Of a stretch of DNA of 64,000 bases, positions 5,499-42,369 are shown one piece after another. Position numbers and translations under genes: made by a program. Position 1 is the first letter of the stretch. Each line of letters opens with the position of its first letter. The notes under the pieces are model-generated. The model searched no databases and was not told the origin of the DNA. It saw only the letters and a program-made list of their open reading frames with translations. This DNA is from Kiritimatiellia bacterium (GTDB taxonomy: Bacteria > Verrucomicrobiota > Kiritimatiellia > B70-G9), in contig JAOZMZ010000002.1 of NCBI GenBank assembly GCA_029934055.1, positions 14,489-78,488 on the forward strand. Direction: 5' to 3'.

Positions 5499-5591
5499 AT
5501 TGGAGCAACTTTATTCATGATGCGCCTGCCGCCTTTCTTTACTATCCCAACCATTAACACTACCTGTAACACCTCGATTTCTGCCAACCAC

Positions 5592-6847: not shown

Positions 6848-6900
6848 CCGCCCCGGATAACGGCGCTCACTTTCCTCCAGGAACTCTACCCTCAGCTTAC

Positions 6901-7986
6901 TCACGTTTCCAGCACCCCCATGGCCGCACCAACCGCCGCTGCAAAACGCGCCTCCTGCCCCTGCAGCTTCTCGGGAAGCGCGGTCGCACCGATGCACTCC
7001 AGCGGGTTCCACACAATCACCTCTCCGGCCACCGCCGAACGAACACAGTCCACCCAGTAGGACGACATCGCCATCCCTCCGCAGAGATAAAAACGGGTGA
7101 CATGACATTCTTCCCGGCGCTCGACGAAATCCCGTGAAATTGACAGCTGCTGCAAGAACTGCTGAGCGGCCTGTGTCACAAACTGCGAAATATCGAAGGA
7201 ACCCTCCTGAATCACTCGCAATGCCACATCTCGGGTAACCCGCATCTTTTTCTCGAAGAGTTCCGCCACCCGATCACCACCAAGAGGAAACTGCCTCGCC
7301 AGAGCCAATTCCCCACCGTTGAAAAATGCCAGCAGAGTGCCCCGCGCCTCACATGCAATGTAGCCGATCGCACCCTCGTCCTTGGAAGGCGGCCCCCACG
7401 TCGCAAACGCATCCAGACCCGCCAGCGATGCAATCTGTACCGATGCCGCCGCCGGTATCCCCGATTCGACAAGCGATAAAACCCCCGCCACCTCAGCTTC
7501 CGGCAGGGCCGCCGCCAGTATTCTGACCTCACCCTCCCGGCGGCTCCCCGCCCCCATACGCACAAAGCCGAGCCGGTATTCCTTCTCCAGCCCCAGATGC
7601 TCCCGGAGACGGCCCTCCAACCCCTTGGCATCAGCCGCCTTCCCCGTCAGGCTCAAGAAACGCACCACGGCCTCCGGACTCGATACCGCCATGCCGGCAT
7701 ATGTCACCCGCCACTCCCGCGGCAACGGCAAAACCGGCCCGCCCGCCTTCCGGTCTTCCTCTTTTTCCGAAGCCAACTCCAATTTCAATGGCGGCAGCAC
7801 ATCGGCATTGACCAGCGTATACCCCTCCTTGCCCCGCCGAATCCATATGAGCTTGAGGCCCGAAGACCCAAGATCCACCCCCAGTGCCTCACTGACCACC
7901 GGCTCCCTGACTACACCTTTAAGGCTGAAGTCCACCACGGCTCCACAAACCTCCTGCCGCGTCGCCCGGGTCGCGTATCTCCGCAA
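6901..7986 (-). CDS. pilM: PilM, the actin-like ATPase-fold pilus assembly protein
   Basis: The N-terminal phosphate-1-like motif EALGVDLGSSGLKLIWI matches the GxDxGS signature of PilM/FtsA. Its length (about 360 aa) fits. It is the first gene of the pilMNOQ arrangement. Confidence 0.75.
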   Translation of the reverse strand: MRRYATRATRQEVCGAVVDFSLKGVVREPVVSEALGVDLGSSGLKLIWIRRGKEGYTLVNADVLPPLKLELASEKEEDRKAGGPVLPLPREWRVTYAGMAVSSPEAVVRFLSLTGKAADAKGLEGRLREHLGLEKEYRLGFVRMGAGSRREGEVRILAAALPEAEVAGVLSLVESGIPAAASVQIASLAGLDAFATWGPPSKDEGAIGYIACEARGTLLAFFNGGELALARQFPLGGDRVAELFEKKMRVTRDVALRVIQEGSFDISQFVTQAAQQFLQQLSISRDFVERREECHVTRFYLCGGMAMSSYWVDCVRSAVAGEVIVWNPLECIGATALPEKLQGQEARFAAAVGAAMGVLET

Positions 7987-8709: not shown

Positions 8710-11700
8710 GTGAAATCGATGGTGGCCGGTTGTTGGGCGTTTCTAGCATTCTGGGGTTCAGCCACGGCGCTTTTCGGAGCCCTGCCGGACAATCCATCCG
8801 GCAATCCAAATCCAGCCGTGCCCGACTATGTACTTACCGTCAGCAGCAGCAACCTCTATAGTCTCCATGCCGCCGGCGCCCCGGTGCAGGCAATTCTGCG
8901 CGACATCGCCCGCGCATCAGGGATAAAAATCCATGTCGCCCCCGACCTCAACACCAAGATAAACGCCGACCTGCGCGACTTGCCCCTGGACAAGCTCCTC
9001 GCTCAACTGGCCGAAAGCCATGCCTTTGTCTACGTCTCTGAAGAAGACGGCATCCATCTGGTCGGCGCCCAAGTAACCTCGCGCAGCAACGAGAAACACT
9101 TATCGCAGGTCGCCACAGTACAGACCGGCAAGACCAAAGCGCGCAGAACAACTTTCATCACCAACTCGGATTCCGATCCGGCACAGCTCCTGCGCGATCC
9201 CGACACCCTCCTGCTGCGAAACGCCTTCATCGATACGCGCGCCGCCGTCGAGGAAGGCGTGCGCCTGTCTGTGCCGCCGGATCTGTCGGCAGCGGAAAAC
9301 AACCCTTACTTTCTCGTGCAGTTCGATCATCCCGTCGGCTCCGCCGATCGTGAACTTCTCAGCGGTGTCGGAGCCGAAGTTCTAAACTATGTTCCCCATC
9401 GCGCCTATCTGGTCCGCATCGCCCCGCAACTTCGCAGCCGGCTCGCCGAAGTACAGGGCGTTCGTTACGTTACCCCCTACCATCCATACTTCAAACTCGC
9501 CCCGCCGCTCCTCGCGTCTCTCATAGGGGTCCCCGACCAGGCCGCCACGGCACAGGTCCGCCGCGGCAAGTTCAACGTGATGATATTTCCGGGGGCTCCC
9601 GATTGGAAAAAGGAACTATCTGCCATCGGCGTCTCTGTGGGCACGGTGGTAACGGCCGGCGGCCGTACGTTCGCCACCGTCCACTGTCCGCCGGAAAAAA
9701 TCCGCGCCCTGGCCGGATGCGCCGCCGTGCAGTGGATCGAACCCTTCGCGCCGCCGACCCTTCTCAACGATATAGGCAACAGGTACACCCACGCCACCCG
9801 CCTGCGTCTCTCTCATCCTTCGCTCGACGGACAGGGCGTCATCATCGGCGTGATGGACACGGGCATTGATTTCAATCACCGGACCTTCGCCGAGGATCCC
9901 TCCCTCCCCACCACGACGGGTCAAAACACCCGCATAGTATATTACGAAACGCGTCCCAATCCCGAAAGCGACGGCATCCCCGGCGACAATGTCGGCCACG
10001 GCACCCATGTCTCGGGCACGATTCTCGGGAATGGAGCCTTGTCGGAAACGGTCGTCAAAGCCCCGGGGTCCGGGGCCGGCCCCTACGCAACCAATGCCTT
10101 CGCCGGAGTGGCCCCCGCCGCGCGACTCGTCATGCTCGAAGGATTCGCCGTCGAGGGATACGGCTACACGGCCACCGAGGCCGCCGAACTAGAATATTCC
10201 CATGGCGCACGTATTTCCGCGAATAGTTGGGGTAATCCCGAGCTTTTCGAATACGGTACGGAAAGTGCCGTGTGGGACGCACTGGTGCGCGATGCCGATA
10301 CCAACAGTTCCGGAAACCAGCAGCTCATCGTATTCTTCGCCGCCGGCAACGACAGCTACGGCAACGTGGATGGAACCGGAGGAACCGCCTCGCGGATCCG
10401 CGAACAGGCGGCCGCCAAGAACGTCATCTCGGTCGGCGCTCTGGAAACCCCCCGCTACGCAACCAACCTGCCGGAATATGCCTCGCTGTGGGAGTCCGAC
10501 TCCGACTGGCAGGTGGCCTGGTTCAGCTCCCGCGGTCCCGTCTCTTCAACCGACCTGCGCGTCAAGCCCGACATCGTCGCCCCCGGATCATTCATTCTTT
10601 CGGCCCAGTCGAAGGATACCAACCCCGATGAAGTCGAAAATCCGCCCCTGCCGAACCGCGACTATCGGCACGGCAACGTGGATTCGGGAACCAATTACGC
10701 TTTCATGAGCGGCACCTCCATGGCCACCCCCATCGCCGCCGGCGCCGGCGCTCTGGTCTACCAGTATTATACCAACACTTATGAAACCACCCCCAGCCCG
10801 GCCATGATGAAAGCCATCCTCGTCAATGGCGCACGCATGGTCAACCGGGTGCTCTATTCCTATCCCGCTTACGGCACCGCGTCCACCAACATCGCCCAAG
10901 GCTGGGGCATGGTGGACGTCTCCCGCGCCGTGGACGGCCCCGGATTGCATGACTCCGACGACGTGGTATGGCTCGACGAAGATCAGACCGCCACGCTCCA
11001 GACGGGCGAAGAATATTCCTACCAGTACTCCGTGGCCGAGGGCGAAGGCGGACTCAAAATCACTCTGGCATGGACCGACGACCCCGGAACACCCGGAAAC
11101 GCCGTCCAGCTCGTCAACGACCTCGATCTGATCGTTATCGCCCCCGATGGGCGCGGTTATGTCGGCAACTACTTCGACTCCGACGGCTGGTCCTCCGCCA
11201 TTGTCGCCGATCCCACCAACAGCGTCTACGGCGATCGCTACAACAACGTCGAGCAGGTCGTGATACCGGAGCCGGACGCCGGAACCTATTATATCCGCGT
11301 CATCGGCCATGAAGTCCCCGGATCCGGCCAGAATTTCGCCTTGGCTATCATGAAAGGAATCTCGCCGGTCCCCGCCCATACTCAGGGCGGCCACCCGGCC
11401 ATGGTCCTCGACAGCAACCAGTATCCGATCGTCGCCTGGTCAGGCGACGACGGCGGCGGCCATGATCAGATCTTCGTGAAGCGCTGGCAGGGAGCCACCG
11501 GCGACCAATCCGATATCGGGCACTGGAAACGCCTCGACGAACGCTGGACCGACATGAATGACTCCGCCAGGATCACAGGAATAAGCAAGACCCTCGAAGA
11601 TTCCGAAGACCCCTGTATCGCTGTCTACGGCGAGCTGATCTACGTCGCCTGGAAAGAAGAAGCTCCCCTTTCGGGACCTGCCCATATTCACCTGCGCTGC

Positions 11701-14700
11701 TGGAACGGGACCAACTGGATAGAATTGGGCCAGTCCGCCCACGACACCGGACTCAGCGGCGAAAATTCCTACAGTGCCTCCGATCCATCCATCTCCCTGA
11801 CCTCCAACGGTCTGCCGATAGTTGCCTGGAGACAGCCCGTCCTCAACGGTACCGAGTACAACGAGCAGATCCGTGTCGTCCGCTGGGACGGCACCAACTG
11901 GCTGGGCTATGCCGGTTCGGATTCGAACGGCATTCCGGGAACCGGACAGTCGACAATTACGCCTACGATGATCAGCGACGCCGCCGGCCGCCCCGTCATC
12001 GCCTGGTACGGCCTGCCCTCCGGCGGCGGCAGCCCGGGCATACACGTCTATCGCTGGGATGGAAGCGCATGGGTGAGCATCGGGAGCCCCGTCTCGGCAA
12101 CCGGCGTCCAGGAACCCTCCCTGGCCCTCGCCCCCAACGGGGATATCTATCTGACGTGGGTCCAGTTCGGCTCCGGAATCGACGAACCCAACACCCAGAT
12201 CTACGCGGCCCACTATTCAGGGGGGGGCTGGCATGAATTCGGCGGATCAATGACCTACCCCGGCATCAGCTCCTCAAGCAATACCGTCACCGATCCCGCC
12301 GGCCCGGCCATCTCCATCGCCCCCGACGGCACGGTCTATGTAGCCTGGCAGGCCGGCAATAACGATCCGAATTCGCTTTTCCTGAAAAAATACTCCGGCG
12401 GCGCATGGGTCGGTATACTTCAGAGCGATGAACCCCCCGGGATCGCCCGCAGTGGCGGAATCGCCACGAACACCGTCCTCTTGGCGGACGGCTACGGCCT
12501 GCCGGTGGTCTCGTATTCGGCCATCGTCAGCGGGGACAAACAAATCTTCACCTACCGCCTGGTCACCGATGAGCTTCCCCCGGCCTTCACGGGGCTGAAG
12601 GACGCCGCCGGAGGCACCAACAGCAATGTGTCTCTTTCCTGGGATCAGGCCGTGGATACCTCCACCACCATCTACTATCACATCTATCAAAGCACAAACT
12701 TCTGGCTCTGCGGGCAACAGCCCTCCTGTGACGCCGATGACGTTTTCAATCACGAAATCGCCGTTGTCACCAATACCACCTCCTACGAAGTCACCGGTCT
12801 GCAAAACGACCGGCTGTGGTGCTTCGGCGTGCGCGCCGAAGACACCAACGGCCTCCTCGACGCCAACACCGTCATGCACTCCGCCGGACCAATCGCCGGC
12901 GGCGGCGATACCGATGGTGACTGCCTCGAAAATTCGCTCGAATTCGCCGCCGGTACCGAGCCCTGCCTGCAGGATACCGACGGAGACGGAATGTGGGACG
13001 GCTGGGAATGGACCTATTCCACCAACAACCCTGCACATACCAACACCTTCTCCCTGGATCCCCTCGACAACGGCAACGACCGCGTCCGCACCGCCGAACC
13101 CGATGACGGCGACCCCGACCAGCTCCCGGATGCCGACCTCGACAACGACGGCGCTTCCACCCTTGAGGAATTCGAGTGGTGGTACACCAATACATACCTG
13201 AGCACCGGCTGCGACGCCACCGGACCCACCAACCGCAGCGGCCCCGACCCCACCAACCCCGACAGCGACGGCGACGGCATGAACGACGGCTGGGAAATTT
13301 TCAACGACCTCAATCCGGGGGATCCTTCCGACGGCGCCGTTGACGCCGACGGAGACGGTGTCGCCAACAGTAATGAGTTCGCCTACGGCATCGACCCCAC
13401 CAACCCCGACAGCGATTCCGACGGCATAACCGATGGAGACGAAATTCAAACCTATGGAACCGACCCGTCTCTGCCGGATACCGACCGCGACGGGCTCGAT
13501 GACGGGTTTGAACTCCAGATAGGCTCCGATCCTCTCGACGCCGACAGCAACGACAGCGGCGTGAGTGACGGTGATACTTTCCAACTCGGCTGGGACGATC
13601 CTACCCTGCCGATCACCAACTTCAACCTGCTCCTCTCCGAAAACTTTGAACCCTCGTCACCCACCCGCAACCAGTGGACTCACTACTGGACCGACGGGAA
13701 TTATCCCTACGACTTCTGGCATTTTTCCACCGCCGAGCCCGCCCCGAAAACAAACACGGTCGTCTACATCACGGATCACTCCACCAGCACGGTCTACCGC
13801 ATGGCCGCCGACCCCAGCGGCACCAACGTGGATGCGACTTACAGTACCGGCAGCATCGTTCAATGCGCCCTTGAGAGTCCCGCCATCGACGCTTCCGCAG
13901 TTGAAAACCTGTTCGTCTCCTGGAACGAATTCTACGCCACCGAACCGCAATGGGATATCATGGAACTCCAGGCCCGTGCCGGAAGCGACAGTAACTGGTT
14001 CGTCGTCAGCGATACACGCTCGGGCTTCAGCTATGGATGGACCAATCGCGTTGCGGACCTCACCCGCTTCGCCGGCATGACCAATGTCCATCTGCGTTTC
14101 TTCTTCGCCGCCCAAAACTCTAACAACAACGCCTACGCCGGCTGGTTCGTCGACGACGTGCGCGTTTACGAAGGTGTAACCATCACCGGCTGGGTGCGCG
14201 ATATCAACGGGCGCCCGATCGCCGGCGCTGAAGTCATGGCCATCGGCCGCGGACAGGTGACCAATGCCGTCCACGGACATCGCTACGTCCTGCCCGGTAA
14301 AGTGTTCGGCACACGTACCACCACCGCTGACGGTTCTTACCAAATCGCCGGCCTGCCCCAGGGGCACTATTACGTCAAGGCGTCTCAAGCCGGCTATGTG
14401 GATGAATTCTACAATGGCCCGCTCTTCTCCGGCCAGTACGGCTTCGGAAACCTGCTCAATCCCGGCGTCCCCGACAGGGATCAGGTCACCTCCGCGGGCT
14501 GGGTCAACCTTACCGGCACCGGCCAGCGCGTTGAGTGTGATTTCGAGCTCGAAAAAGGCAGCGGCCGCGGCTACCTGGGAGTGATGCTCGCCAACGGTGC
14601 CGGATCCTCCTACGAAGTGTTCCTCAACGGCCTCTCGGTAGAAATCTGGAACGGCGTCACCAATTCCGATACGAACGCCCCGCCGGTGGCCGACCTCGAA

Positions 14701-17700
14701 CCCTACCGATCATCTACCAATACGACGCTCTGGAATAACCATCCCGACTGGATCACCAACCCGGTCGAGCCCCTCCTCATCGCCGACATCGCCCCCGGCA
14801 GTCACCTGGTGAGCGCCGGAACGAATCTGACGCTCTATCCCCCGGCCGAAGTGCTCGTACGCGAGGGAGAAATAAGCCTGGTGAACATCTTCACCAACCA
14901 GGGCGAAGGCCGTCTCTACGTCACCGCCGATGACGACGGCGCCTATCCCGTCTGGCTGGACGGACGCGATACCGGAGAGCTGACCCCGGTCCTGCTGGCC
15001 GTTAAAGCCGGAGAGCACACCATATGCATTATTCCCACCAATTCACTTCGCGTCGCCCCCCAAACCGCCGATGTACCGCTCGGCGTCCGCGTAAAGGTCG
15101 CCTTTTCCACCAACGATATCAGCGGCAACCCCGGTTCTCTCTTGATTCAGACCGTCGACGTCAACGGCAATGCCGTCACCGGCGCCGCGGTCTACGTCGA
15201 TGAACGCCGCGTCGAGCCCGATGAGGTCTCCCAGGGATACACCAACCTGACCCCCACGATCGTCAACAACCTTCTGCCCGGCAGTCACCTCGTGACCGTC
15301 TCCAAGGACGGTTACGCCGCCGCCGAACTGCGCCCCATCGCCATCGGTCAAGGTATCCAAAGCGAGATCACCTTCGTCCTGCATGAAGCCGATAGCGACT
15401 ACGACGGCGTGGGCGACTGGACGGAAATCAGCGGCTACACCAACCGCTTCCTCTACGCCCGGGACGACGACCCCGATAACGACGGGCTCAACAACCTCTT
15501 CGAGTTCGACCAGTACCGCCTCTTCGATGTGCGCCTCAATATCTTCAACGCCGACAGCGACGGCGACGGCATGCCCGACGGCGATGAGCTCGGCTACGAC
15601 GGCATCACCAACCGCCTCGCCCTTTCCAGCCTGAGCACCAACGCCGTCCAGGGCACGGATACCGTCCGGGCATATTTCGTCGGCCGCTACCTCGAAGGTA
15701 TCGACAACTTCGGTCAGGACCATGTCAACCCGGCCGTCGAGTGCGACCGCTTCGAGGCCAGCACGGTCTCTCATCCGATGATCCCCGTCCCCGCCGTCGA
15801 TCCCGCGCTTACCGTCTTCGGAGGAATACCGCCCACGGTCTCCGAACGCGCCGTGGACGTGGGCCATAATCCGGGCGCCGTACTCCTCGCCGATGCCCTT
15901 CCCGACCAGCAGGATACCGACGGCGATACACTCTGGGACGGCTTCGAGTTCCAGTTCGGCCGCGATACCGTCGCCGGCCTTGATCCCACGGAATGTTCCG
16001 ACCCCAACGCCGACCCGGACTACGACGGCGCCTCCAACTACCGTGAATTCCTCGGCGCCGACGGCCTGGCCAATACGAACGACTGGTCGGATCCCACCAA
16101 CCCCGACAGCGATGGCGACGGCATGCCCGATGGATGGGAATACGACCACTCTCTCGATCCGACCGATCCCTCCGACGCCGCCGAGGATTCCGATTCCGAC
16201 GGCCTGGCCAACAGCAATGAGTACGTTCATGGCACCAATCCTCAACTCCCCGACACCGATAAAGACTACCTGCCCGACGGCCCGGAAGTGTTGCAGTACC
16301 AATCCAACCCGCTCAAAACCGACACCGACGGAGACCACCTCATTGACGGACGCGAGGTTTGGGATTGGAACACCAACGGCGTCTTCGACGGGGGCTTCTT
16401 CCACTTCCCAAGCAACCACATCCCCGGTGACCTGGACGGCGACGGCATGCTCGACGGTCCGTCCGACTGGGATACCGACGGCGACGGTATGCCCGACGGT
16501 TTCGAAGTCATTGACGCCTTCGGCAACGTCCGCAGCCCGGCCCTGGATCCCTACAACCCCAACGACGGTGACGAAGACTACGATGGCGACGGGCTTAATA
16601 ACCTTGAAGAATATCTCGTGTGGAACGCACAATACGGCAATCCGCCCGGATCCTTCGATACCAACTACGGATATGTCGTCTGGGATTACTCCACCGACCC
16701 GTTCAACCCCGACAGCGACGGCGACGGCATGCCCGATGGTTGGGAAGTCATCTACGGCCTCCATCCCATGGATCCCATCCCCGTGGACGGCGTCCTCCAG
16801 GTCCGCTATCCCGAGCTCGGCGCCGATGGTGATGTTGATCATGACGGACTCTTCAACGAACGTGAATATTCGGTGCGCTTCCTGATCAATCCCGGCGCCG
16901 ACAGCAATTCGATCACCGAGGCCAGTACCAGTCCCTGGAATCCCGACAGTGACGGCGACGGGCTCGGCGACGGCGAAGAAGACCGTTCCTTCCGCTGCAG
17001 CCCCGTCGTCCAGGACACCGACCGCGATGGACTCACCGACGGTGTATCGCTTACCGGTCACTGGGCCGAAGTTGAATCCGCCCCGCGCCTGGCGAACGGC
17101 GCCATGAGCGTCAGCAATCACTACGACCGTGCGCTGAACGACCTCTGGCGACTCGTCTGGCCTAAGTTCCAGGATCTGCCCAACTGGGAACAGGTGACGC
17201 CCAACACAAACAACCCCCTGCCGGAACCCCGCTGGGGCCCCGCCGCTACCTATATTCCGGTTTTCGAAATAAAAACCCGGGAAATAGACAGCGGTCTCAA
17301 GACGACGAATACCGTGCTGCTTGATAACCGCCAGATCGTGATCATCGGCGGGCGCGACGGCGTGGAACGGTTCACCAATATTTGGGAATTCGTCATCCGC
17401 TCGAATTCATGGGTGCTCAGTGATGCCACCCTCGACGACATAGGCCTCTCCGAAGGTCTCAGCGAGGTCAGCGCTGTCACCCTGCTGGGATATTTCAACA
17501 CCCGTGCCGACCAGTGCCCGTGCGATAATCAACCCTATTACTGCGATGGCACCTCTTTCGGCCTTCCCAAGAACCGTCCCTGGGACAACGGCTACGGCCG
17601 TTCCAGCTTCGACTGGACCTATATCCTCGGCGGCTGGGACGAAATCCACAACTATTACCAGCCCGTCCCCATGCCGTCCTACTACTACAAATCCACCGAC

Positions 17701-20700
17701 GACCAGGACCCGATCACCGAAGAGGATCCGGTCGGCGCCGAAGGGTACAACAGCGGGCCGGTTTCCGACGAAAGCCTCATACAAATCGGAACACTTACCG
17801 AAGGACAGCAGGCGAGCAACGAGTGGGCCGTCGGCGCCGAGGGCATCAACGACGGTGCTGTAACCAACGTTACACGCGTAGCGATCGGCTCCGGTGCCAC
17901 CAACGGTCTCTTCTTCGACGGTCTCAATATCCCCGCCGGCTCCACCATCATCTCCGCTAACATGGACTTGAACATCACCGCCTACGGCGCCTCTACCAAC
18001 AACCTGCACATCGTCGGCGAATTGCTTTCCAATGGTCAATCCGATAACGACTACACCAACGATCCACCCAGCTATCGCCGCGTCTTCAGCGCATTCATCA
18101 GCTCGACCCAGGATTTCACCATCTCGGCGGCCGACCTCAGCGCCTTCAAAACCAACATCGACATCACCGCGATCGTCACCGAAATGGTGGCCCGGCCGGA
18201 CTGGGCAGCCCAAAGCGCCGGCTTCCTGATCTATGGAGAAACGCTGGGCGCCTCGAACGAACTACGGGTCGGAGAATCGGTCTTGCACGTAGTCTATCGC
18301 CAGCCGGCGGCGGAATATGACTACAACGGCTTCTTCTTCGATGACGTCTACTTGCGCACGAACTGCGAGGATATCCTTTCCGCTGAACTTGTTCTCGACC
18401 TGACCTCCACCGGCATCTCGTCCAACGACCTGCACCTGCGCGGCGAATTGTGGCTCGACGGCAAGTCTTCCGTAGACTACACCGGCATCCCCGTCACAAA
18501 CCGCTTGACGATGTCTCAGTTCCTGAGTTCCGAACTCCAGTTCACCGTCGTGGTCACCGGCTACACCGTCGTGGCCCTCGACGTCACTCCCATCATCGCC
18601 GAAATGCTCGCACAGGATAACTGGGCGGCCGAAAGCGCCGGCTTCATCCTCTGGGGGGACACTCACGGATCCACCCTCTATGAATATGCCGGCAAAACAA
18701 CCCTGCGCGTCACCTATCGGCCGGGCTACAAGAAGAAAGCCTACTGGACCAGCGGTACCCACGTCCAGATATCCGGAGAAATGCCCGGCGTTCGCAAGTC
18801 CGTCGTCCAGGTCTACGATTACAAGCGCGACCGGATAGTGGCCTTCGGAGGAATCGGAGGGCGTACCGTCTACGCCGACACCTACGAAGGAACTCCCGTC
18901 TGGAACGATCTGGACGGAGAAGTGGTCTATGCCGACCCGCAATCAATCGGCGATCCCCACATGATACTTTGGACCAAGATCATTCCCGCCCACAGTCCGC
19001 CGGCACGCTGGGGACACTGTATGGTCTACGACCCGGTCGACGAATGCGTCCTCCTGTTCGGCGGTTTCGACGCCGACAACCGCCCGCTCAATGATCTCTG
19101 GAAATACAAAGACGGCGACTGGAGTCATATCACGGTCTTCGAGGATTCCCAGGTGCCGCCCCCGCGCGGTGGAGCCTCGATGATTTACTTCGGCGCCTTC
19201 ATGTACGATCGCGGTTACGCCGACTATTGCCTCTCTTGCGATCACCAAGCCCCGGTCCTCTTCGGAGGTACGGACGGGTCCCACTACTTCAACGACACGT
19301 GGGTCTATGACTTCGAGTCCGCACGCTGGATCATGGTCAACCCCGACGGCGAACAATCTCAGGGGCCCCAACCTCGCGCCTTCGCGGTATTCGTCTTCGC
19401 CCAAAACGCCGGCTGGTCGCCGGATCCCGAAGGCACCGCAACCTACGAGGATCTCGACCCCGCCGACCGTTGCGCAACACCCGCAGCCTATCTCTTCGGC
19501 GGCCGTTGCGGCACGCTGCCGACGTCCGCCGATACGGACTACGATTACGTCAGCGATGGAGAAGAACACGCCATCGGCGGCCCGGCCGCCGGGCACGACC
19601 CGCGCGTCAATGCCCTGATCCCCAACACCGATACCAACGAAAGTCTGCCGTTCTGCTTCCTCCAAATCGGTTCTCTCGTGGCCGATACCGGCAGCCGCGG
19701 CACCATCGCCAACCTGGAAGCCCTCTCCTATGAGGAAGGGGATGACTCCGGTGACTACGCTCCCGCCTTTGATCTTCCCTTCCAGGGATACCCACTACAG
19801 CCCAACAGCAATACCAATATCTTCGATTCGGGCGTAGACGCACGACTCCCTCAGTTTACAAACCTGTGGTACCACCGTGACGGCGGCGACGACCCCTTCG
19901 GCCCCGGCAACGCCTGGGAACTCGGCATCCCCAACCCGGACGCCGTGGGCACCGACGCCGCCCCCGATCACGCCCACAGCGGACGCTGGTGCTTCGGAAC
20001 CGACCTCGACGGGCGTTACCCGGACGATGCTATCTGTGAACTGTATTCCCCGCTTTTCAGCCTCACCCTGCCGCCCGCCGCCGCCACTTGCTCCAATAAC
20101 CCGAACAGCTTCTTCCTCGTCTTCTATGAATGGCTCGACCTCCACGACACCAACGATGCCGTGCGCCTCGACGTCATCTGTCCGCGCACCCCCGCCGACA
20201 TCCTCACTCGATCCGGCACCAACGTGGTCAACATACTCTCCGACCGCAACAGCAATTATAATACTGACGGCGCCTGGCGCCGCGTCGTCGTCTCCCTCGA
20301 TCCGGTTGCCAACGAAAGCAATCTGTACCTCCGCTTCACCCTGCAATCCGACAATGACGGGAATGCCGGTGGATGGTACATAGACGACATCAGCATTCTT
20401 CAGGGCGCGGAAATCAGCGGCATTCTCTCCAACTCCAGCGCGCCCTTCGCCTACGGCGATGTGGCGGTATTCGGCGGAGATAACTTGGCCGGAGCCATGG
20501 ACGTCACCAAGACCGACGCCAACGGCTACTTCGAATTCGGCCTTCTGCCCCTCGGCGTCTATCGCGTCGCCACCGTCGGCACCCTTTTCGATCCCATCGC
20601 GATGAGCAGCACCGGCTGGAATTACACCCTCGGCACGTCCAGTATTCCGCCCCTCGTGGTCAGCACGGTCACCCCCGGCAGCCCGACGGCTATCGCCTGG

Positions 20701-20868
20701 CCGGCCGTGCCCGGCATGAACTATCAACTCGAGTACACCACCAACATGATCACCTCGCCGTGGCAGATTCTGACCACCATTACGGCCTCCAGCACCAACG
20801 AAGAATATCTGGATTACTCCACAAACGGCCTGCGCTTCTACCGCGTACGCTTCACCGGTTCCCCTTGA
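8710..20868 (+). CDS. Giant secreted multidomain subtilisin-like serine peptidase (S8), 4052 aa. Domain order: signal peptide, STN/secretin-N-like domain, I9-like propeptide, S8 catalytic domain, proprotein-convertase P-domain, beta-propeller-like W-repeats, FN3, multiple TSP3 Ca-binding repeats, carboxypeptidase-regulatory-like domains, Kelch repeats, C-terminal FN3-like tail.
   Basis: - S8 catalytic triad motifs: GVIIGVMDTGIDFNH (Asp), HGTHVSGTILG (His), GTSMATPIAAGAGALV (Ser).
- P-domain: LKITLAWTDDPG...VNDLDLIVIAPDG.
- Six or more repeats of type PIVAWxG...W(D/N)G(T/S)(N/A)W.
- More than ten D-x-D-x-DG-x-x-DGWE TSP3-like repeats (e.g. NPDSDGDGMPDGWE).
- Kelch-like PARWGHCMVYD...LLFGG.
- GTG start with a strong SD. 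Confidence 0.9.
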   Translation: MKSMVAGCWAFLAFWGSATALFGALPDNPSGNPNPAVPDYVLTVSSSNLYSLHAAGAPVQAILRDIARASGIKIHVAPDLNTKINADLRDLPLDKLLAQLAESHAFVYVSEEDGIHLVGAQVTSRSNEKHLSQVATVQTGKTKARRTTFITNSDSDPAQLLRDPDTLLLRNAFIDTRAAVEEGVRLSVPPDLSAAENNPYFLVQFDHPVGSADRELLSGVGAEVLNYVPHRAYLVRIAPQLRSRLAEVQGVRYVTPYHPYFKLAPPLLASLIGVPDQAATAQVRRGKFNVMIFPGAPDWKKELSAIGVSVGTVVTAGGRTFATVHCPPEKIRALAGCAAVQWIEPFAPPTLLNDIGNRYTHATRLRLSHPSLDGQGVIIGVMDTGIDFNHRTFAEDPSLPTTTGQNTRIVYYETRPNPESDGIPGDNVGHGTHVSGTILGNGALSETVVKAPGSGAGPYATNAFAGVAPAARLVMLEGFAVEGYGYTATEAAELEYSHGARISANSWGNPELFEYGTESAVWDALVRDADTNSSGNQQLIVFFAAGNDSYGNVDGTGGTASRIREQAAAKNVISVGALETPRYATNLPEYASLWESDSDWQVAWFSSRGPVSSTDLRVKPDIVAPGSFILSAQSKDTNPDEVENPPLPNRDYRHGNVDSGTNYAFMSGTSMATPIAAGAGALVYQYYTNTYETTPSPAMMKAILVNGARMVNRVLYSYPAYGTASTNIAQGWGMVDVSRAVDGPGLHDSDDVVWLDEDQTATLQTGEEYSYQYSVAEGEGGLKITLAWTDDPGTPGNAVQLVNDLDLIVIAPDGRGYVGNYFDSDGWSSAIVADPTNSVYGDRYNNVEQVVIPEPDAGTYYIRVIGHEVPGSGQNFALAIMKGISPVPAHTQGGHPAMVLDSNQYPIVAWSGDDGGGHDQIFVKRWQGATGDQSDIGHWKRLDERWTDMNDSARITGISKTLEDSEDPCIAVYGELIYVAWKEEAPLSGPAHIHLRCWNGTNWIELGQSAHDTGLSGENSYSASDPSISLTSNGLPIVAWRQPVLNGTEYNEQIRVVRWDGTNWLGYAGSDSNGIPGTGQSTITPTMISDAAGRPVIAWYGLPSGGGSPGIHVYRWDGSAWVSIGSPVSATGVQEPSLALAPNGDIYLTWVQFGSGIDEPNTQIYAAHYSGGGWHEFGGSMTYPGISSSSNTVTDPAGPAISIAPDGTVYVAWQAGNNDPNSLFLKKYSGGAWVGILQSDEPPGIARSGGIATNTVLLADGYGLPVVSYSAIVSGDKQIFTYRLVTDELPPAFTGLKDAAGGTNSNVSLSWDQAVDTSTTIYYHIYQSTNFWLCGQQPSCDADDVFNHEIAVVTNTTSYEVTGLQNDRLWCFGVRAEDTNGLLDANTVMHSAGPIAGGGDTDGDCLENSLEFAAGTEPCLQDTDGDGMWDGWEWTYSTNNPAHTNTFSLDPLDNGNDRVRTAEPDDGDPDQLPDADLDNDGASTLEEFEWWYTNTYLSTGCDATGPTNRSGPDPTNPDSDGDGMNDGWEIFNDLNPGDPSDGAVDADGDGVANSNEFAYGIDPTNPDSDSDGITDGDEIQTYGTDPSLPDTDRDGLDDGFELQIGSDPLDADSNDSGVSDGDTFQLGWDDPTLPITNFNLLLSENFEPSSPTRNQWTHYWTDGNYPYDFWHFSTAEPAPKTNTVVYITDHSTSTVYRMAADPSGTNVDATYSTGSIVQCALESPAIDASAVENLFVSWNEFYATEPQWDIMELQARAGSDSNWFVVSDTRSGFSYGWTNRVADLTRFAGMTNVHLRFFFAAQNSNNNAYAGWFVDDVRVYEGVTITGWVRDINGRPIAGAEVMAIGRGQVTNAVHGHRYVLPGKVFGTRTTTADGSYQIAGLPQGHYYVKASQAGYVDEFYNGPLFSGQYGFGNLLNPGVPDRDQVTSAGWVNLTGTGQRVECDFELEKGSGRGYLGVMLANGAGSSYEVFLNGLSVEIWNGVTNSDTNAPPVADLEPYRSSTNTTLWNNHPDWITNPVEPLLIADIAPGSHLVSAGTNLTLYPPAEVLVREGEISLVNIFTNQGEGRLYVTADDDGAYPVWLDGRDTGELTPVLLAVKAGEHTICIIPTNSLRVAPQTADVPLGVRVKVAFSTNDISGNPGSLLIQTVDVNGNAVTGAAVYVDERRVEPDEVSQGYTNLTPTIVNNLLPGSHLVTVSKDGYAAAELRPIAIGQGIQSEITFVLHEADSDYDGVGDWTEISGYTNRFLYARDDDPDNDGLNNLFEFDQYRLFDVRLNIFNADSDGDGMPDGDELGYDGITNRLALSSLSTNAVQGTDTVRAYFVGRYLEGIDNFGQDHVNPAVECDRFEASTVSHPMIPVPAVDPALTVFGGIPPTVSERAVDVGHNPGAVLLADALPDQQDTDGDTLWDGFEFQFGRDTVAGLDPTECSDPNADPDYDGASNYREFLGADGLANTNDWSDPTNPDSDGDGMPDGWEYDHSLDPTDPSDAAEDSDSDGLANSNEYVHGTNPQLPDTDKDYLPDGPEVLQYQSNPLKTDTDGDHLIDGREVWDWNTNGVFDGGFFHFPSNHIPGDLDGDGMLDGPSDWDTDGDGMPDGFEVIDAFGNVRSPALDPYNPNDGDEDYDGDGLNNLEEYLVWNAQYGNPPGSFDTNYGYVVWDYSTDPFNPDSDGDGMPDGWEVIYGLHPMDPIPVDGVLQVRYPELGADGDVDHDGLFNEREYSVRFLINPGADSNSITEASTSPWNPDSDGDGLGDGEEDRSFRCSPVVQDTDRDGLTDGVSLTGHWAEVESAPRLANGAMSVSNHYDRALNDLWRLVWPKFQDLPNWEQVTPNTNNPLPEPRWGPAATYIPVFEIKTREIDSGLKTTNTVLLDNRQIVIIGGRDGVERFTNIWEFVIRSNSWVLSDATLDDIGLSEGLSEVSAVTLLGYFNTRADQCPCDNQPYYCDGTSFGLPKNRPWDNGYGRSSFDWTYILGGWDEIHNYYQPVPMPSYYYKSTDDQDPITEEDPVGAEGYNSGPVSDESLIQIGTLTEGQQASNEWAVGAEGINDGAVTNVTRVAIGSGATNGLFFDGLNIPAGSTIISANMDLNITAYGASTNNLHIVGELLSNGQSDNDYTNDPPSYRRVFSAFISSTQDFTISAADLSAFKTNIDITAIVTEMVARPDWAAQSAGFLIYGETLGASNELRVGESVLHVVYRQPAAEYDYNGFFFDDVYLRTNCEDILSAELVLDLTSTGISSNDLHLRGELWLDGKSSVDYTGIPVTNRLTMSQFLSSELQFTVVVTGYTVVALDVTPIIAEMLAQDNWAAESAGFILWGDTHGSTLYEYAGKTTLRVTYRPGYKKKAYWTSGTHVQISGEMPGVRKSVVQVYDYKRDRIVAFGGIGGRTVYADTYEGTPVWNDLDGEVVYADPQSIGDPHMILWTKIIPAHSPPARWGHCMVYDPVDECVLLFGGFDADNRPLNDLWKYKDGDWSHITVFEDSQVPPPRGGASMIYFGAFMYDRGYADYCLSCDHQAPVLFGGTDGSHYFNDTWVYDFESARWIMVNPDGEQSQGPQPRAFAVFVFAQNAGWSPDPEGTATYEDLDPADRCATPAAYLFGGRCGTLPTSADTDYDYVSDGEEHAIGGPAAGHDPRVNALIPNTDTNESLPFCFLQIGSLVADTGSRGTIANLEALSYEEGDDSGDYAPAFDLPFQGYPLQPNSNTNIFDSGVDARLPQFTNLWYHRDGGDDPFGPGNAWELGIPNPDAVGTDAAPDHAHSGRWCFGTDLDGRYPDDAICELYSPLFSLTLPPAAATCSNNPNSFFLVFYEWLDLHDTNDAVRLDVICPRTPADILTRSGTNVVNILSDRNSNYNTDGAWRRVVVSLDPVANESNLYLRFTLQSDNDGNAGGWYIDDISILQGAEISGILSNSSAPFAYGDVAVFGGDNLAGAMDVTKTDANGYFEFGLLPLGVYRVATVGTLFDPIAMSSTGWNYTLGTSSIPPLVVSTVTPGSPTAIAWPAVPGMNYQLEYTTNMITSPWQILTTITASSTNEEYLDYSTNGLRFYRVRFTGSP

Positions 20869-24364: not shown

Positions 24365-27300
24365 ATGACTCGCCTGAGCTTCACGCTAATCTCACAAGGA
24401 GGAATTTTGAATAAATCAATTTTGAGAGCGCTTGCAATTATCGCGGCGGCTGTCGCCGTAACCCGGCAGATACCCGCGGAGACCCTGTCGAACGCCGGAT
24501 TCGAAACCGGCGACCTCTCAGGATGGTCAACCATCACCAATCAACTCTCCATCGCCACCGATACCAACAACACGTTCAATCAAAACTACGCCGCCCGCCT
24601 CCAGGGATCGTTCTGCGCCTCCTCACCCATCACCAATACCCTCTCCCAATCCATCAATGTCGCCGCTGGCGATCAACTCCACTTGCTGGGATTCGTTCAC
24701 TGGGCCACCAACTCCTATTCCTCATCCGCCGGGACGGGAACCGTCTGCGCCTCCCTGAGCGATACCTTCGGTGCTGTCACCAGCGCCACCTGGAACGCCG
24801 CTTTCGACGGCTGGCGCTTCTTCGACCTCCACCACGAACTCTTCGGCATCCACGACCGCGGATTCGAATCAGGCGGCCTCAGTGCCTGGGATACGGGCTG
24901 CGATGACCTCACCGCCTCGGTTCAGGCCGCCGTGGCCGATGTCGGCGATTATGCCCTCGAAATGGCCGGAACCTTCGACGGCTGGAGCTGGAACCAAGTC
25001 TACCAGCTGCTCACTCTCACCAACGGCGACGTCATTCACGCCCGCGCCCGTATCAATGTCGAGGAACTCAATACCACCGGATCATGGGTGGTCGCAGGCA
25101 TTAAACTGGAAAAGGACGGCGGTGGCTACGGAGTCGAAGACGTCATCCAGGCGAACACCAACTCCACCGGCTGGCAGGATCTCTCCTTCGTAAGCGCCCC
25201 AATCACCAACAGCGGACTCTATATCTTCCGCTGTATGATCTGCGGCTATGGGGCGGCCACCTGCACCGTCTATTTCGACGATATCCTCGTGTGGCGCGAG
25301 GAGGATTCCACCGACGGCCTCGCCACGGCGACGGTCTCCCTGTCCTTCGAGGGGTTCTCGGGAGGCGCTTCCGAAACCGGCACGGTGGATCTCTACTGGG
25401 ATTCCATCGCCCTGGACGGCTCGTCCGCCAATCCCCTCCCGGCCACGAATATCTATACAACCCTGCGCGCGGAAGCCGAAAGTATCGCCACCAACCCGGC
25501 CGCCGATATCCCGGCGATCAACTACCCGCCCCTGTACGTGTACGTCTTTCCGATCGGCGATTGGGGCGTCACCGATTACCCATCCTACGTGGAAGTGGGA
25601 TTCGCCAGCTGGACGAATGGCAGCGACCTGATATGCACCAACGTAATCATTCTCTACCGTCCCGACAATGACTCGACCGAAAGAGTGCTCGAATTCGACT
25701 CCTACGGTTACCTCGGGGCGATGGCGCACACCGAACGCGGCGAGGGGATATTGCTGGACACCAACTCTCCGCCCTATTTCATGCTGGGCAGCAAGGACGG
25801 CAGCAGTGCCGAATTCGGCACGGGGCCTTTCGCGGAAACCCACACCTACGTGATCGGCACGCCGCTGACGAATTTCCCCCGCAAAATGACCACGGCCTAC
25901 GGCGACGGCTGGCCCAGCCGGCTGGAAATAGTCTTTACGGAAAATGCCGGGGCCTGTACGAGTTCCCTGTGGACCAAGCACTTCATCCTCGCCAGTATCG
26001 TGACCAACTCGGATACCCATCCCGCCAAGGGCGTCAAGATCTGCCTCTACGCAACCACTTCCGGAACGTCCAACGACATTTCCTATACCAGCCAGGAAAT
26101 CCTGATGGGCGGCGCCACGGAACCCCAAATGTACGGTCGGGTAGATTACCCCAACGTCACCTATCAGGATCACAACGCCGTCTCCCTGCGCGCCCCCTGG
26201 CTTTACAATCTGCTCGACGACGGCACCGGCTGGTGGATGCAACAGCGCCCGCGCGGCAGCGCAACGATTGAACCGATGACCCTCTATGTTTGCAGGGACT
26301 GCAACTGGGTCGAACGTCCGTACGAAGAATACCTCTTCACGTGGTTCAACGCGGCCTCCGGCGTACGTTCCGTTTTCGAGGACGACTACGCCGATCGTAT
26401 TCCCGGACAGGCATCGTATCATGTCGGGTTCAAGATCGGACACATGTACGGAACCAACGAAGACGGCACGGCCCGCTATCCCGAGGTAATCAACATCCGC
26501 GGCAACGGCTACTTCCGCATGGCGGACTACGACGGCGTCATGGCCGGCAGCTTCCGCCCGTTGGCGGCCGATATCTTCGGCCTCTATCAGTTCAGCGAAG
26601 ACGCCCCTCTGATCCCCAAAGCCTATTCCCGCATGGTTCCCCGCACCACTCCCACCAACGGAACCGACGACAGTTACGCCCAGGTCTTCCTCTCGGCCCG
26701 CTCGAAAACCAACAATTGGTTCACCTCGGCCATGGAAATGGAGCTTCACCTGAGTCCCGACGAAGTGGTCTCCAACGGGTGTTTCTTCGATCTGGAACTC
26801 GACACCTATGCCAACCGCGCGGTAACGGTCACCAACGACGGGGCCCTGGCGGCGTTCGACCAGGTCTCAATGCACTGGCGCGGCGGCTCCACCAACATGG
26901 GAATCAACGACCACACCGAAGGCCATGATATCGACGTCGTCATCCTCAAGCGTTCCGACGGCGAATGGATCACCCACCAGGTGCTCAACCCGCCCACCAA
27001 CCTTTACCACCGCGTACTGGGCACATTCGCAAGCAACGACGTGGTCTATCTCATGCAGCAAGACCGTGCCCCATATTCATACGGCTTCTCCACGGAACAA
27101 CCATACCGCAAGGCGTGCTCCTTCGAAATCACCCTCCTCGATGACGCCGGACGTGACCTAACCCTCGACGTCTATGAACAAAACACGGCCAGCGAAATAT
27201 CCGACAACGTCAACATCGCCGCCAACTTCAGCGACGATCTCTCCAGCGGCGAACACCTCCACTACAAGTATCGCTATCGCTCGATCTACGCTCCCGGGGT

Positions 27301-29401
27301 CTACATCATCCACCCGAATCAGACCAGCGGCGGCGATAACTGGACGAACGGAGCCTACACCATCGAATTCTACGCAACCGACGGGGACGACGAACCGCTG
27401 CAGGCCGATATCTACTACGGGAACGGATGCGACGACGACTGGCACCTCATAAACACCAACCAAACCATCAACGTCGATACTTCGACACATTACGCCTCCT
27501 GGACCTGGGATCTCTCGGGAGTCGCCACGGGGGCTTATTACATCAAGGTCGTCGCCCGGCGCGGCGGCGGCGGAAAGCCGGGTTTCGACGTCTCCAACAG
27601 TCGCCTCATGGTGGAAGATACACTCGGATTCCCCCACAACGGACATACCAACGTAACCATCATCACCAACGACTGGGCACTGCTCGGCAACGATATGAGT
27701 TTCGAGTCCGGCAACAAATACGGCTGGGGCACCTCGCCGACCAACTGGAGTGAGGGCAACGACGACCTCGAAGTTCACATCACCTCGGACCGCTCCTGGG
27801 AAGGAGGTTACTCGGCCCGCATGCATGGCGGCGCCTGGACGGGATGGTCTTTCAACAACATCTATCAGCAGATCCCTTGTACCTCCGGAGAAGTCCTGTA
27901 TGTCACCGGCCGCGTCTATCTCGCCCAACTCGGCATCAACCCCGGAAGCACAAACTGGCTGAAGTGCGGAATCAAATTGGAGCCTACCAACGGCACCCCT
28001 TCAACCGCCGAAGACTGGCTCACCCCCGACGACGCCACCGCCTGCTGGCATACCCTGACCTTCTCATGCAACATAACCAACAGCGGCACCCGGAAACTCA
28101 TCCTCTACGTCATGGGATACGACGCTACCGGAGCCGACGTCTACTTCGACCGAATAGACGTTTTTTCCACAAATACCGGTACGATCGTTACCAATGAAAC
28201 ACGCACAAGCTATTGGCTCGGAGACCCCGACACCGACGTGTCCGATTACGATCTGCTGACTTTCTGGATAAGCGCCGCAAATCCGATCGACTACGCGGAA
28301 ATATGGGCCGCCGACTCCAGCGGCGTGACCAATACCGTGCCCCTTACCAATTTCCTCTCCCGCATCATATCACTGCAACGGCGCGTTGACGTTCCCTGGA
28401 CCAATTTCACCACCATCGACCGCACCCACTTGCATTCAATCGGCTTCAACAACTCAACCTCCAACAGCCTCTCGGTCGCCGATATGCGCTCACGCTCGAC
28501 ACCGATGCGGATATCCTCAAGCGTTCCGGCAACGGTCCGCCATGATCAGGACGGCCTGCCCCTCTTCAATCCCGGCGACGTCCTCACCAATATCATCAGC
28601 ATTCAAAACCTGAGCGGCAACACGCTTACCGGCCTGCGCATCCAGGTTGACCAGGAATACGCCGAAACCACCCTCTGGTGGGACTCCTCTCCGGGAGTAA
28701 GCCCCGTATGGAGCTGTCGCACCCGCAAAGGCGACCGCCTCTGTGGAGAATATGAACAGATTTGGACGAATATGAGCATCCCCGCCGGCTCGACGCTTGT
28801 CATCACGAACCTCTTCACGCTGCCATACGGCCAGCGAGTCGACCACACCCGCTATAAAACACAACCCGGTGAATACGACTGGTTCTTCGATCGTAACTAT
28901 GCCGGCCATGCCCGTAGCCATCTCGTGATCCGCCGCTCCAACGGTGACAACTTCTTCGCGGACGACCAGATTGTCTATTATTCCATGGATGACGATTTCG
29001 ATGTGGATAACGATGGATTGCCGGACTCATATGAATTGGAGCATTCCGGTTCATATACGGGCATGCAGGCGTCCGCCGACGACGACGGCGACGGTCGCAA
29101 CAATCTCCGGGAATTCGTAGCCGGCACCTGCCCCACCAATGCGGCCTCATTCCTCGACCTCGACCATATCGAATGCGAACCGGCCGCCGCCGTGGAACTG
29201 CAATTCGACACCGTCACCGGTCGGGTTTACTGGGCCGAGTGGTGCTCCAACCTGCTCGAACATGCCTGGTCGCCCGTGTCCACCAATCTGCTCGATGGTG
29301 ACGGTGGACTGAAAACCATTATCGACTACGAGAGCCTCTACGTCACCAGCCGCTATTACCGGATAGGCGTAAAACTGGGACAGGATTCCTGGCCACGCTG
29401 A
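24365..29401 (+). CDS. Large secreted protein (about 1680 aa) with three CBM4/9-like beta-sandwich modules, TSP3 Ca-binding repeats and the shared C-terminal FN3-like tail
   Basis: A signal peptide (LRALAIIAAAVAVT) is present. The motif N(A/G)xFE(T/S)Gx(L/K)xGW, typical of CBM_4_9, opens three modules near residues 55, 180 and 1130. A TSP3-like DDDFDVDNDGLPDSYE...DDDGDGRNNLREF is present. The C-terminus reads ...GRVYWAEW...SRYYRIGVKL. I chose the internal ATG at 24365 over 24326. Confidence 0.8.
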   Translation: MTRLSFTLISQGGILNKSILRALAIIAAAVAVTRQIPAETLSNAGFETGDLSGWSTITNQLSIATDTNNTFNQNYAARLQGSFCASSPITNTLSQSINVAAGDQLHLLGFVHWATNSYSSSAGTGTVCASLSDTFGAVTSATWNAAFDGWRFFDLHHELFGIHDRGFESGGLSAWDTGCDDLTASVQAAVADVGDYALEMAGTFDGWSWNQVYQLLTLTNGDVIHARARINVEELNTTGSWVVAGIKLEKDGGGYGVEDVIQANTNSTGWQDLSFVSAPITNSGLYIFRCMICGYGAATCTVYFDDILVWREEDSTDGLATATVSLSFEGFSGGASETGTVDLYWDSIALDGSSANPLPATNIYTTLRAEAESIATNPAADIPAINYPPLYVYVFPIGDWGVTDYPSYVEVGFASWTNGSDLICTNVIILYRPDNDSTERVLEFDSYGYLGAMAHTERGEGILLDTNSPPYFMLGSKDGSSAEFGTGPFAETHTYVIGTPLTNFPRKMTTAYGDGWPSRLEIVFTENAGACTSSLWTKHFILASIVTNSDTHPAKGVKICLYATTSGTSNDISYTSQEILMGGATEPQMYGRVDYPNVTYQDHNAVSLRAPWLYNLLDDGTGWWMQQRPRGSATIEPMTLYVCRDCNWVERPYEEYLFTWFNAASGVRSVFEDDYADRIPGQASYHVGFKIGHMYGTNEDGTARYPEVINIRGNGYFRMADYDGVMAGSFRPLAADIFGLYQFSEDAPLIPKAYSRMVPRTTPTNGTDDSYAQVFLSARSKTNNWFTSAMEMELHLSPDEVVSNGCFFDLELDTYANRAVTVTNDGALAAFDQVSMHWRGGSTNMGINDHTEGHDIDVVILKRSDGEWITHQVLNPPTNLYHRVLGTFASNDVVYLMQQDRAPYSYGFSTEQPYRKACSFEITLLDDAGRDLTLDVYEQNTASEISDNVNIAANFSDDLSSGEHLHYKYRYRSIYAPGVYIIHPNQTSGGDNWTNGAYTIEFYATDGDDEPLQADIYYGNGCDDDWHLINTNQTINVDTSTHYASWTWDLSGVATGAYYIKVVARRGGGGKPGFDVSNSRLMVEDTLGFPHNGHTNVTIITNDWALLGNDMSFESGNKYGWGTSPTNWSEGNDDLEVHITSDRSWEGGYSARMHGGAWTGWSFNNIYQQIPCTSGEVLYVTGRVYLAQLGINPGSTNWLKCGIKLEPTNGTPSTAEDWLTPDDATACWHTLTFSCNITNSGTRKLILYVMGYDATGADVYFDRIDVFSTNTGTIVTNETRTSYWLGDPDTDVSDYDLLTFWISAANPIDYAEIWAADSSGVTNTVPLTNFLSRIISLQRRVDVPWTNFTTIDRTHLHSIGFNNSTSNSLSVADMRSRSTPMRISSSVPATVRHDQDGLPLFNPGDVLTNIISIQNLSGNTLTGLRIQVDQEYAETTLWWDSSPGVSPVWSCRTRKGDRLCGEYEQIWTNMSIPAGSTLVITNLFTLPYGQRVDHTRYKTQPGEYDWFFDRNYAGHARSHLVIRRSNGDNFFADDQIVYYSMDDDFDVDNDGLPDSYELEHSGSYTGMQASADDDGDGRNNLREFVAGTCPTNAASFLDLDHIECEPAAAVELQFDTVTGRVYWAEWCSNLLEHAWSPVSTNLLDGDGGLKTIIDYESLYVTSRYYRIGVKLGQDSWPR

Positions 29402-39831: not shown

Positions 39832-39859
39832 CCATCAATCTCCCGCCAGCCGCCTGTAT

Positions 39860-42345: not shown

Positions 42346-42369
42346 CGTCAGCCTGTGCCGCTTTCCTCT

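Follow-up and report, generated by a model that had tools for sequence, protein, structure and literature searches.

Several kinds of module are known at the C-terminal end of secreted bacterial proteins. The C-terminal domain (CTD) of the type IX secretion system (T9SS) of Bacteroidota (Por_Secre_tail, PF18962 / TIGR04183) is a folded, seven-stranded immunoglobulin (Ig)-like β-sandwich of ~ 70–100 residues, which sits as a single copy at the extreme C-terminus of many unrelated signal-peptide proteins, with many instances per genome, and is cleaved and attached. The fibronectin type III (FN3) domain (PF00041), which also occurs in bacterial extracellular enzymes, is a seven-strand sandwich of ~ 90 residues with A-B-E and C'-C-F-G sheets, and its generic bacterial versions are mostly internal linkers. 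PPC (PF04151), a small β-sandwich, ends secreted proteases, for example of the S8 family, in one or a few copies; a part in secretion or binding is ascribed to it, and it is often cleaved off later. SLH, GW modules and choline-binding repeats are C-terminal and tandem, occur on diverse enzymes and bind Gram-positive wall polymers, extra copies adding avidity. Finally, PEP-CTERM/exosortase and LPXTG/sortase signals are peptides of ~ 25 residues in which a motif is followed by a transmembrane helix and a basic tail. Here we describe a tail domain with which three large secreted proteins end in a stretch of 64,000 nucleotides of the Kiritimatiellia bacterium contig JAOZMZ010000002.1 (the whole stretch analysed is hereafter called the window, and all coordinates count from its first letter), and we compare it with these systems.

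The three host genes are all on the forward strand. The first (8710–20868) encodes a giant S8-subtilase protein of 4052 residues, in which the Pfam scan finds Peptidase_S8, bacterial TSP3 repeats, CarboxypepD_reg, PEGA and Kelch, and the exact 4052-residue protein is present in a public protein collection. The second (24365–29401, with an open reading frame (ORF) that opens at 24326 and a first ATG at 24365) encodes a protein of ~ 1680 residues (1691/1678) with NTTRR-F1-like and weak MdoG-like regions in the domain-model scans. The third (45487–48204, ORF opening at 45310) encodes a TIGR03790-family protein of 905 residues (family match at E 9.5e-47) with a Big_7 domain, the publicly called 905-residue product being P0284. 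Judged by eye, the N-termini of the first two are signal-peptide-like (MKSMVAGCWAFLAFWGSATA and ...NKSILRALAIIAAAVAVTRQIPA, respectively), and the third protein has the signal peptide MSRIVTGLLLLAILALSASA. Each protein carries a single tail copy, terminal in every case. Tail 1 (20635–20865, stop codon at 20866–20868) runs from TSSIPPLVV to GLRFYRVRFTGSP, tail 2 (29171–29398, stop codon at 29399–29401) from ECEPAAAVELQFDTVTGRVYW to SRYYRIGVKLGQDSWPR, and tail 3 (47980–48201, stop codon at 48202–48204) from LRRGTGDSTRITFISS to GGLRFYRVRAELP, so that the proteins end in ...RFYRVRFTGSP, ...RYYRIGVKLGQDSWPR and ...RFYRVRAELP.

In pairwise comparison alone, the likeness of the tails is weak. By BLASTP, proteins 1 and 3 have only TxGLRFYRVR in common (10 residues, E 2e-4), the comparison of proteins 1 and 2 is not significant (E 0.3), and that of proteins 2 and 3 reaches E 6e-9 but takes in an upstream DDGDGxxNxxEF motif. 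The pattern [FYW][FYW]R[VILA] is found within the last 25 residues in only these 3 of the 375 stop-to-stop segments of at least 80 residues in the six frames of the window. Furthermore, a profile built from 50 unrelated metagenomic tails, and hence free of window sequence, was run against 844 six-frame segments of the window. It scores tails 1, 2 and 3 at 44.3, 39.6 and 16.2 bits (domain E 5.8e-13, 1.7e-11 and 3.5e-4), with no other site among these segments at E < 4. Since an independent profile matches exactly the three tails, their similarity reflects homology and not chance, and the three tails are homologous to a family defined independently of the window. The initial annotation, made from the letters of the window, was thus right that the three secreted proteins share a C-terminal tail, and its coordinates and quoted endings are accurate.

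The family alignment was seeded from the window. A profile of the three tails alone gave 3 matches among 96 candidates, short metagenomic proteins ending in ...RFYRVR, and re-seeding with those three proteins gave 424 matches, from which an alignment of 53 sequences (A3) was built. In A3, Y and R are invariant and Y, W, D, R and F nearly invariant; the landmarks of this type of tail are a conserved Trp, Tyr, Trp, G-x-G and Asp, followed by a last strand R[FY]YR[VI]. Against these landmarks, GDGGLKTIID of protein 2 aligns to the G-x-G...D strand and not to the GLRFYRV of proteins 1 and 3. Hence the consensus pattern first proposed for the three tails captures their homology, but its GGL(R/K) element merges two different positions, GGLK of protein 2 and GLR of proteins 1 and 3. 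The match envelopes end 3, 8 and 2 residues before the stop in tails 1, 2 and 3. In tail 2 the domain envelope stops at 29374 and is followed by an 8-residue extension (29375–29398; KLGQDSWPR). An unrelated metagenomic protein, P0066, has an extended ending ...SRYYRIGLKFGSQAWPL (KFGSQAWPL) that matches this extension, and on sequence grounds the two suggest a subfamily in which ...G-x-x-x-W-P is conserved at the end.

Pfam-A and NCBIfam scans at permissive thresholds covered the window tails, three canonical tails and all 53 A3 members and returned scattered sub-threshold matches only, among them fn3 in 1/53 members at E 0.026 and Tissue_fac in 3/53. On the window tails, fn3 (PF00041) shows no match at E ≤ 10, and PPC (PF04151) matches neither the window tails nor the 53 family members. 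Models of the Por_Secre_tail / TIGR04183 type give no match on tails or A3 members (Pfam E ≤ 10, NCBIfam E ≤ 1), and none of the NCBIfam sorting-signal models is above threshold on either set. Likewise, most of the short matches that consist of the tail domain alone are without a precomputed Pfam domain, and a literature search (RFYRV-type tail, Verrucomicrobia sorting signals, TIGR03790, Kiritimatiell*) found no description of the tail domain. The tail family is therefore one without a Pfam or NCBIfam model, a solved structure or a paper covering it. It is also very large: an exhaustive hmmsearch with A3 over 1.84 billion cluster representatives finds 42,003 proteins at E ≤ 1e-3, 5,689 at E ≤ 1e-10 and 65 at E ≤ 1e-30.

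Where source names of these matches are available, they are Verrucomicrobia subdivision 3, Limisphaerales, Verrucomicrobiia and Verrucomicrobiota, and the named homologues of protein 3 are from Kiritimatiellia/Kiritimatiellae. Genomes, one per species, were also scanned with a degenerate DNA pattern for QRFYRVRV that contains no stop codon. This gave 91 loci, of which ~ 55 were judged from their segments to be true tail domains and ~ 40% to be chance matches in unrelated frames or proteins; a lenient hidden Markov model pass did not separate the two, and a stricter profile scan confirmed 49 sites, on which the counts given below rest. The genomic tail loci are nearly all from Verrucomicrobiota, including Limisphaera, Opitutales and the cultured Chthoniobacter flavus Ellin428 (L049); the others are in one Kiritimatiellae metagenome-assembled genome (MAG), one Acidoferrum MAG and two MAGs labelled Bifidobacteriaceae, which we suspect to be mis-binned. 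In eight loci (L019, L030, L037, L056, L067, L071, L081 and L088), QRFYRVRV stands in Proteobacterial/Desulfuromonadales proteins, continues as ...VGP... and is followed by the end of the protein ~ 30 residues later, which looks like the SPOR-domain motif. The eight-residue motif alone is thus not specific to the tail family. Given the spread of the tail across Verrucomicrobiota and Kiritimatiellia, its description as a lineage-specific signal does not hold.

The fold of the tail was predicted with AlphaFold2 (AF2). Tail 1, modelled with the A3 alignment, shows six strands at a predicted local distance difference test (pLDDT) score of 84.3, and tail 3, modelled together with its upstream acidic motif and an alignment of orthologue C-termini, shows the same strand order after a short helix at a pLDDT of 82.5. 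The best Foldseek matches of tail 1 in the PDB are FN3 domains, namely Tencon, monobodies and the sixth FN3 of fibronectin (TM score 0.5–0.64, probability up to 1.0, E ~ 0.02), and tail 3 retrieves generic Ig/FN3-like sandwiches. At the sequence level the best PDB match of the profile is the neuroglian FN3 pair at E 0.012, nothing being significant. Where the domain is repeated in tandem, the repeat period is 78 residues (interquartile range 75–82) with the proline-rich linkers counted in, which makes the tail domain shorter than a canonical FN3. Each window tail is accordingly read as a single copy of a ~ 70-residue FN3-like β-sandwich domain with six predicted strands. By our reading of the sequence, the RFYRV strand would be the equivalent of FN3 strand F and the domain would comprise strands A to F, without a G strand. 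An hhalign comparison of the profile with human 10Fn3 aligned RFYRVR to RYYRITY of strand C with a probability of just 4% and was uninformative, hence the strand-by-strand mapping onto FN3 is one that we infer. The truncated FN3-like fold put forward in the initial annotation agrees with the six AF2 strands, the FN3 domains as best Foldseek matches and the 78-residue period of the arrays.

The position of the tail follows a strict rule, and several samples converge on it. Among the short matches, the envelope reaches the last residue in 105/131. The 149 best representatives, which are multi-copy by construction, carry 2–10 tail copies each, and the last copy lies ≤ 10 residues from the C-terminus in 145 of them, usually at 0–3 residues. 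A stop codon follows QRFYRVRV within a few codons in 49/49 of the profile-confirmed genomic sites, and 6/9 bystander tail copies at the same loci are terminal. In the TIGR03790 homologues of protein 3 (30–62% identity), the tail is detectable in 87 of the 120 listed and lies ≤ 6 residues from the end in 85 of these 87. The strict terminal placement on otherwise unrelated proteins, first noticed in the three window proteins, is thus a strong rule far beyond the window. Matches at internal sites, by which the initial annotation would have its sorting-tag reading refuted, do occur: as upstream members of C-terminal arrays and, rarely, as copies placed before other domains.

The last residues and the internal copies were compared as well. 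In the TIGR03790 family the last residue, Pro, is kept in at least 90% of the proteins, above most of the tail (window 48199–48201; column 106 of alignment A5), while family-wide Pro ends about half of the terminal copies and E, Q or R most of the rest. Internal array copies are followed by proline-rich linkers, and by its sequence the terminal Pro looks like the first residue of such a linker. The aromatic-aromatic-Arg-aliphatic motif (RFYRV) is present in 81% of internal against 85% of terminal array copies. Since the internal copies keep it, RFYRV is the last structural strand and not a cleavage or recognition peptide specific to the terminus. In two Verrucomicrobiota MAGs (L086, 8–4909, and L012, 5122–7180), three or four short ORFs within 8 kb have near-identical tails (...DGTVKVLTD...QRFYRVRVE), those of L086 being interspersed, by eye, with toxin-antitoxin-like ORFs. 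These short ORFs may be what is left of gene 3' ends, or cassettes for their recombination.

A linear sorting peptide of the PEP-CTERM or LPXTG type, to which the initial annotation had likened the tail, was considered and is rejected. No hydrophobic helix or basic cluster follows any of the window tails, and the 2–10-copy arrays with RFYRV retained in their internal copies argue in the same direction. Moreover, a PEP-CTERM-like ending after the tail is found in 0 of the 149 multi-copy proteins, and no other C-terminal anchor is found there either.

What the tail does is less firmly settled than what it is. The reading that we favour, though with a little less than even confidence, is by analogy that of a folded, portable C-terminal module for surface display that acts by non-covalent binding and retention. 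The tail ends many unrelated extracellular enzymes and adhesin-like proteins, singly or as proline-linked tandem arrays, and the chain almost always stops 0–3 residues past its last strand. In this proposal the tail would, after Sec export, fasten the protein to a polymer of the cell envelope or the extracellular space. Extra copies would add avidity, as in SLH, GW, choline-binding and PPC or carbohydrate-binding module (CBM)-type C-terminal modules. By strand alternation, the conserved arginines of RFYRVR should share one face of the last (edge) strand, where they could contact an anionic ligand or merely shield the open sheet edge. A retention module of this kind would be neither cut by a sortase-like enzyme nor read as a linear signal. 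Several observations favour it. Nothing follows the tail, the 149 multi-copy proteins have no other anchor and the tail is terminal in 85/87 TIGR03790 homologues, which together point to more than a spacer; and the tandem arrays, whose internal copies bear the motif, are easier to reconcile with binding by avidity than with an export signal used once.

Several points weigh against this proposal. The fold assignment consists of predictions and weak Foldseek E-values (0.02–0.1, none ≤ 1e-3), the missing G strand is deduced solely from the strand count and the domain length, and the binding or retention role is drawn from analogy with other C-terminal modules. Giant S8 homologues with uncleaved-looking N-terminal membrane anchors would need no second anchor. 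Finally, three proteins (P0155, P0175 and P0377) and one genomic locus (L035, + strand frame 1 segment) carry the tail internally, followed by an SGNH-hydrolase-like region, β-propeller-like repeats or an unknown region of ~ 330 residues, so that a free C-terminus is not obligatory.

The strongest alternative, plausible though well short of even odds, takes the tail for a plain structural building block of FN3/Ig-like type that serves as a stabilising cap or stalk element and neither addresses the protein nor binds a ligand; its C-terminal bias would come from gene growth by duplication and recombination at 3' ends. Internal and terminal copies are indeed alike and the proline-linked arrays resemble stalks, the short-ORF clusters of L086 and L012 with their near-identical tails suggest 3'-end recombination, and in close TIGR03790 homologues the tail evolves roughly as the rest of the protein (printed tails compared with 62% overall identity). 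However, a spacer normally joins two parts, yet nothing follows the tail in > 95% of the proteins. Moreover, the tail has stayed terminal in 85/87 TIGR03790 homologues at 30–62% identity, with its last residue conserved, and generic FN3 modules of bacteria, as noted above, are mostly internal.

A second alternative, which we regard as rather improbable, is that the tail, like the T9SS CTD, folds into a domain for export or attachment: a machinery in the outer membrane, peculiar to Verrucomicrobiota/Kiritimatiellia, would recognise the β-sandwich at the end of the protein, move the protein across that membrane or fix it there, and possibly remove the tail. The near-absolute C-terminal position on many unrelated signal-peptide proteins, a size and fold class that resemble the T9SS CTD, the many copies per genome region (3 in 64 kb; several loci per MAG), the strongly conserved last residue of the TIGR03790 subfamily (Pro in at least 90%) and the fact that two tail-bearing S8 giants adjoin secretin/PilM or pseudopilin genes all speak for it. 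Against it stand the tandem arrays of up to 10 copies whose internal copies keep the motif, arrays being to our knowledge not among the known export tags, as well as the rare internal placements of the tail. In addition, no candidate for the machinery came to light, sorting-domain models, Por_Secre_tail and TIGR04183 included, give no match, and just one of the three window genes is near secretion-type genes. The most specific form of this idea, to which we give only a slim chance, sees in the tail the domain by which an undescribed pathway for outer-membrane export or surface attachment in Verrucomicrobiota and Kiritimatiellia recognises its substrates, a functional counterpart of the Bacteroidota T9SS CTD. 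A sandwich without its final strand would leave an arginine-lined open edge, to be completed by a partner strand or occupied by an anionic envelope polymer, and such an edge would explain why the chain stops there.

Chance or compositional likeness, that is a short basic/aromatic motif recurring at three ORF ends, can be dismissed as next to impossible, for although tails 1 and 2 are not significantly alike by BLASTP, tails 1 and 3 share only a 10-residue match and QRFYRVRV alone does arise by chance in unrelated Proteobacterial proteins, it is already refuted by the independent profile that picks exactly three sites in the window, and the predicted folds of tails 1 and 3 agree.

The partners of the tail throughout the family are diverse and include S8 peptidases, PKD, RCC1, LamG, Kelch, PASTA, HYR and Ig domains. 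By a crude heuristic, whose signal-peptide count of 38/78 is to be taken with caution, many homologues begin with a signal peptide or an N-terminal membrane anchor. In two of the window proteins a TSP3-like acidic motif stands shortly upstream of the tail on the + strand, DDGDGRNNLREFVAGTCPTNA before tail 2 (29081–29143) and DDGDGASNRAEFLADTQPTNT before tail 3 (47890–47952); the two align to each other, both give a weak Amuc_1099-family match, and the one before tail 3 is modelled by AF2 as a short helix. A calcium-binding TSP3-like motif that always precedes the tail was considered and rejected, such a motif being present in 63/87 TIGR03790 homologues against 5/119 elsewhere in the family. 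A type I secretion system-like reading, with acidic calcium-binding repeats followed by a C-terminal signal, was rejected too, N-terminal Sec signal peptides being present.

The neighbourhood of the giant subtilases includes genes of pilus and secretion type. In the window, 3453–7986 of the - strand holds a secretin (PF00263), a weak GspM-like ORF, an unknown ORF and a PilM-like ORF, a cluster like those of type IV pili and type II secretion systems that runs divergently from the 4052-residue S8 giant (8710–20868). In a 10.5-Mb genome (L002, 1–16985), an S8 giant with 31–33% identity and 7 tail copies (P0135) is encoded directly after three prepilin-type (N_methyl) and three unknown genes on the same strand. 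The association of giant subtilases with genes for pili or secretion may be a recurring one. A metagenomic protein of 126 residues, P0112, begins like a prepilin (PF07963; GFSLLE motif) and continues directly into the C-terminal half of the tail domain; it could be a genuine pseudopilin-tail fusion or an assembly or frameshift artefact. Elsewhere in the window, an ebo-type cluster on the - strand (38623–43272) has adjacent genes for EboE (NF035939, E 5e-105), a 3-dehydroquinate-synthase-like protein, a type I phosphodiesterase and a UbiA prenyltransferase.

Degradative enzymes and giant surface proteins are secreted in very large numbers by Verrucomicrobiota and Kiritimatiellia, and how they are delivered to the surface or kept there is poorly understood. 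In tens of thousands of clusters of such proteins, a single domain stands at the C-terminus; it is an obvious choice for a new domain-family entry and a concrete starting point for work on surface display or secretion in these bacteria. Even if the tail were a structural module only, its annotation would still clear a large block of "hypothetical" sequence and mark true gene 3' ends. No new mechanism is demonstrated by the finding of the tail.

Set beside the systems described at the outset, the tail resembles the T9SS CTD in its fold class, its size and its place at the end of many unrelated exported proteins. It differs in having six predicted strands instead of seven, in lacking a sequence-model match, in commonly forming 2–10-copy arrays, though there is one copy per window protein, and in its lineage, Verrucomicrobiota and Kiritimatiellia not being known to have a T9SS; furthermore, the CTD is cleaved and attached, whereas the tail is known here from sequence and predicted fold only. 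FN3 provides its best structural and best PDB sequence matches, and a reading of the sequence places FN3 landmarks in the tail (a Trp in strand B, a Tyr in strand C and a Tyr in the last strand). In contrast with FN3, the tail is below the Pfam threshold, measures ~ 70 residues, has no strand after the RFYRV strand and is almost always terminal. With PPC it shares the small β-sandwich and the C-terminal position on secreted proteases, but the PPC model does not match and the tail is found on far more than peptidases and in longer arrays. SLH, GW modules and choline-binding repeats are like it in being C-terminal, tandem and carried by diverse enzymes, and differ in their unrelated folds and sequences and in their Gram-positive wall ligands. 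PEP-CTERM and LPXTG signals likewise end many secreted proteins of the same phyla, but the tail is a globular domain without a hydrophobic helix. The tail is thus best described as most like the C-terminal β-sandwich accessory domains (T9SS CTD, PPC and FN3/CBM modules), yet it fails their sequence-model tests. What is new is a very large FN3-like family without a curated model and with an unusually strict C-terminal rule, which differs from the known modules in strand number, arrays and lineage.

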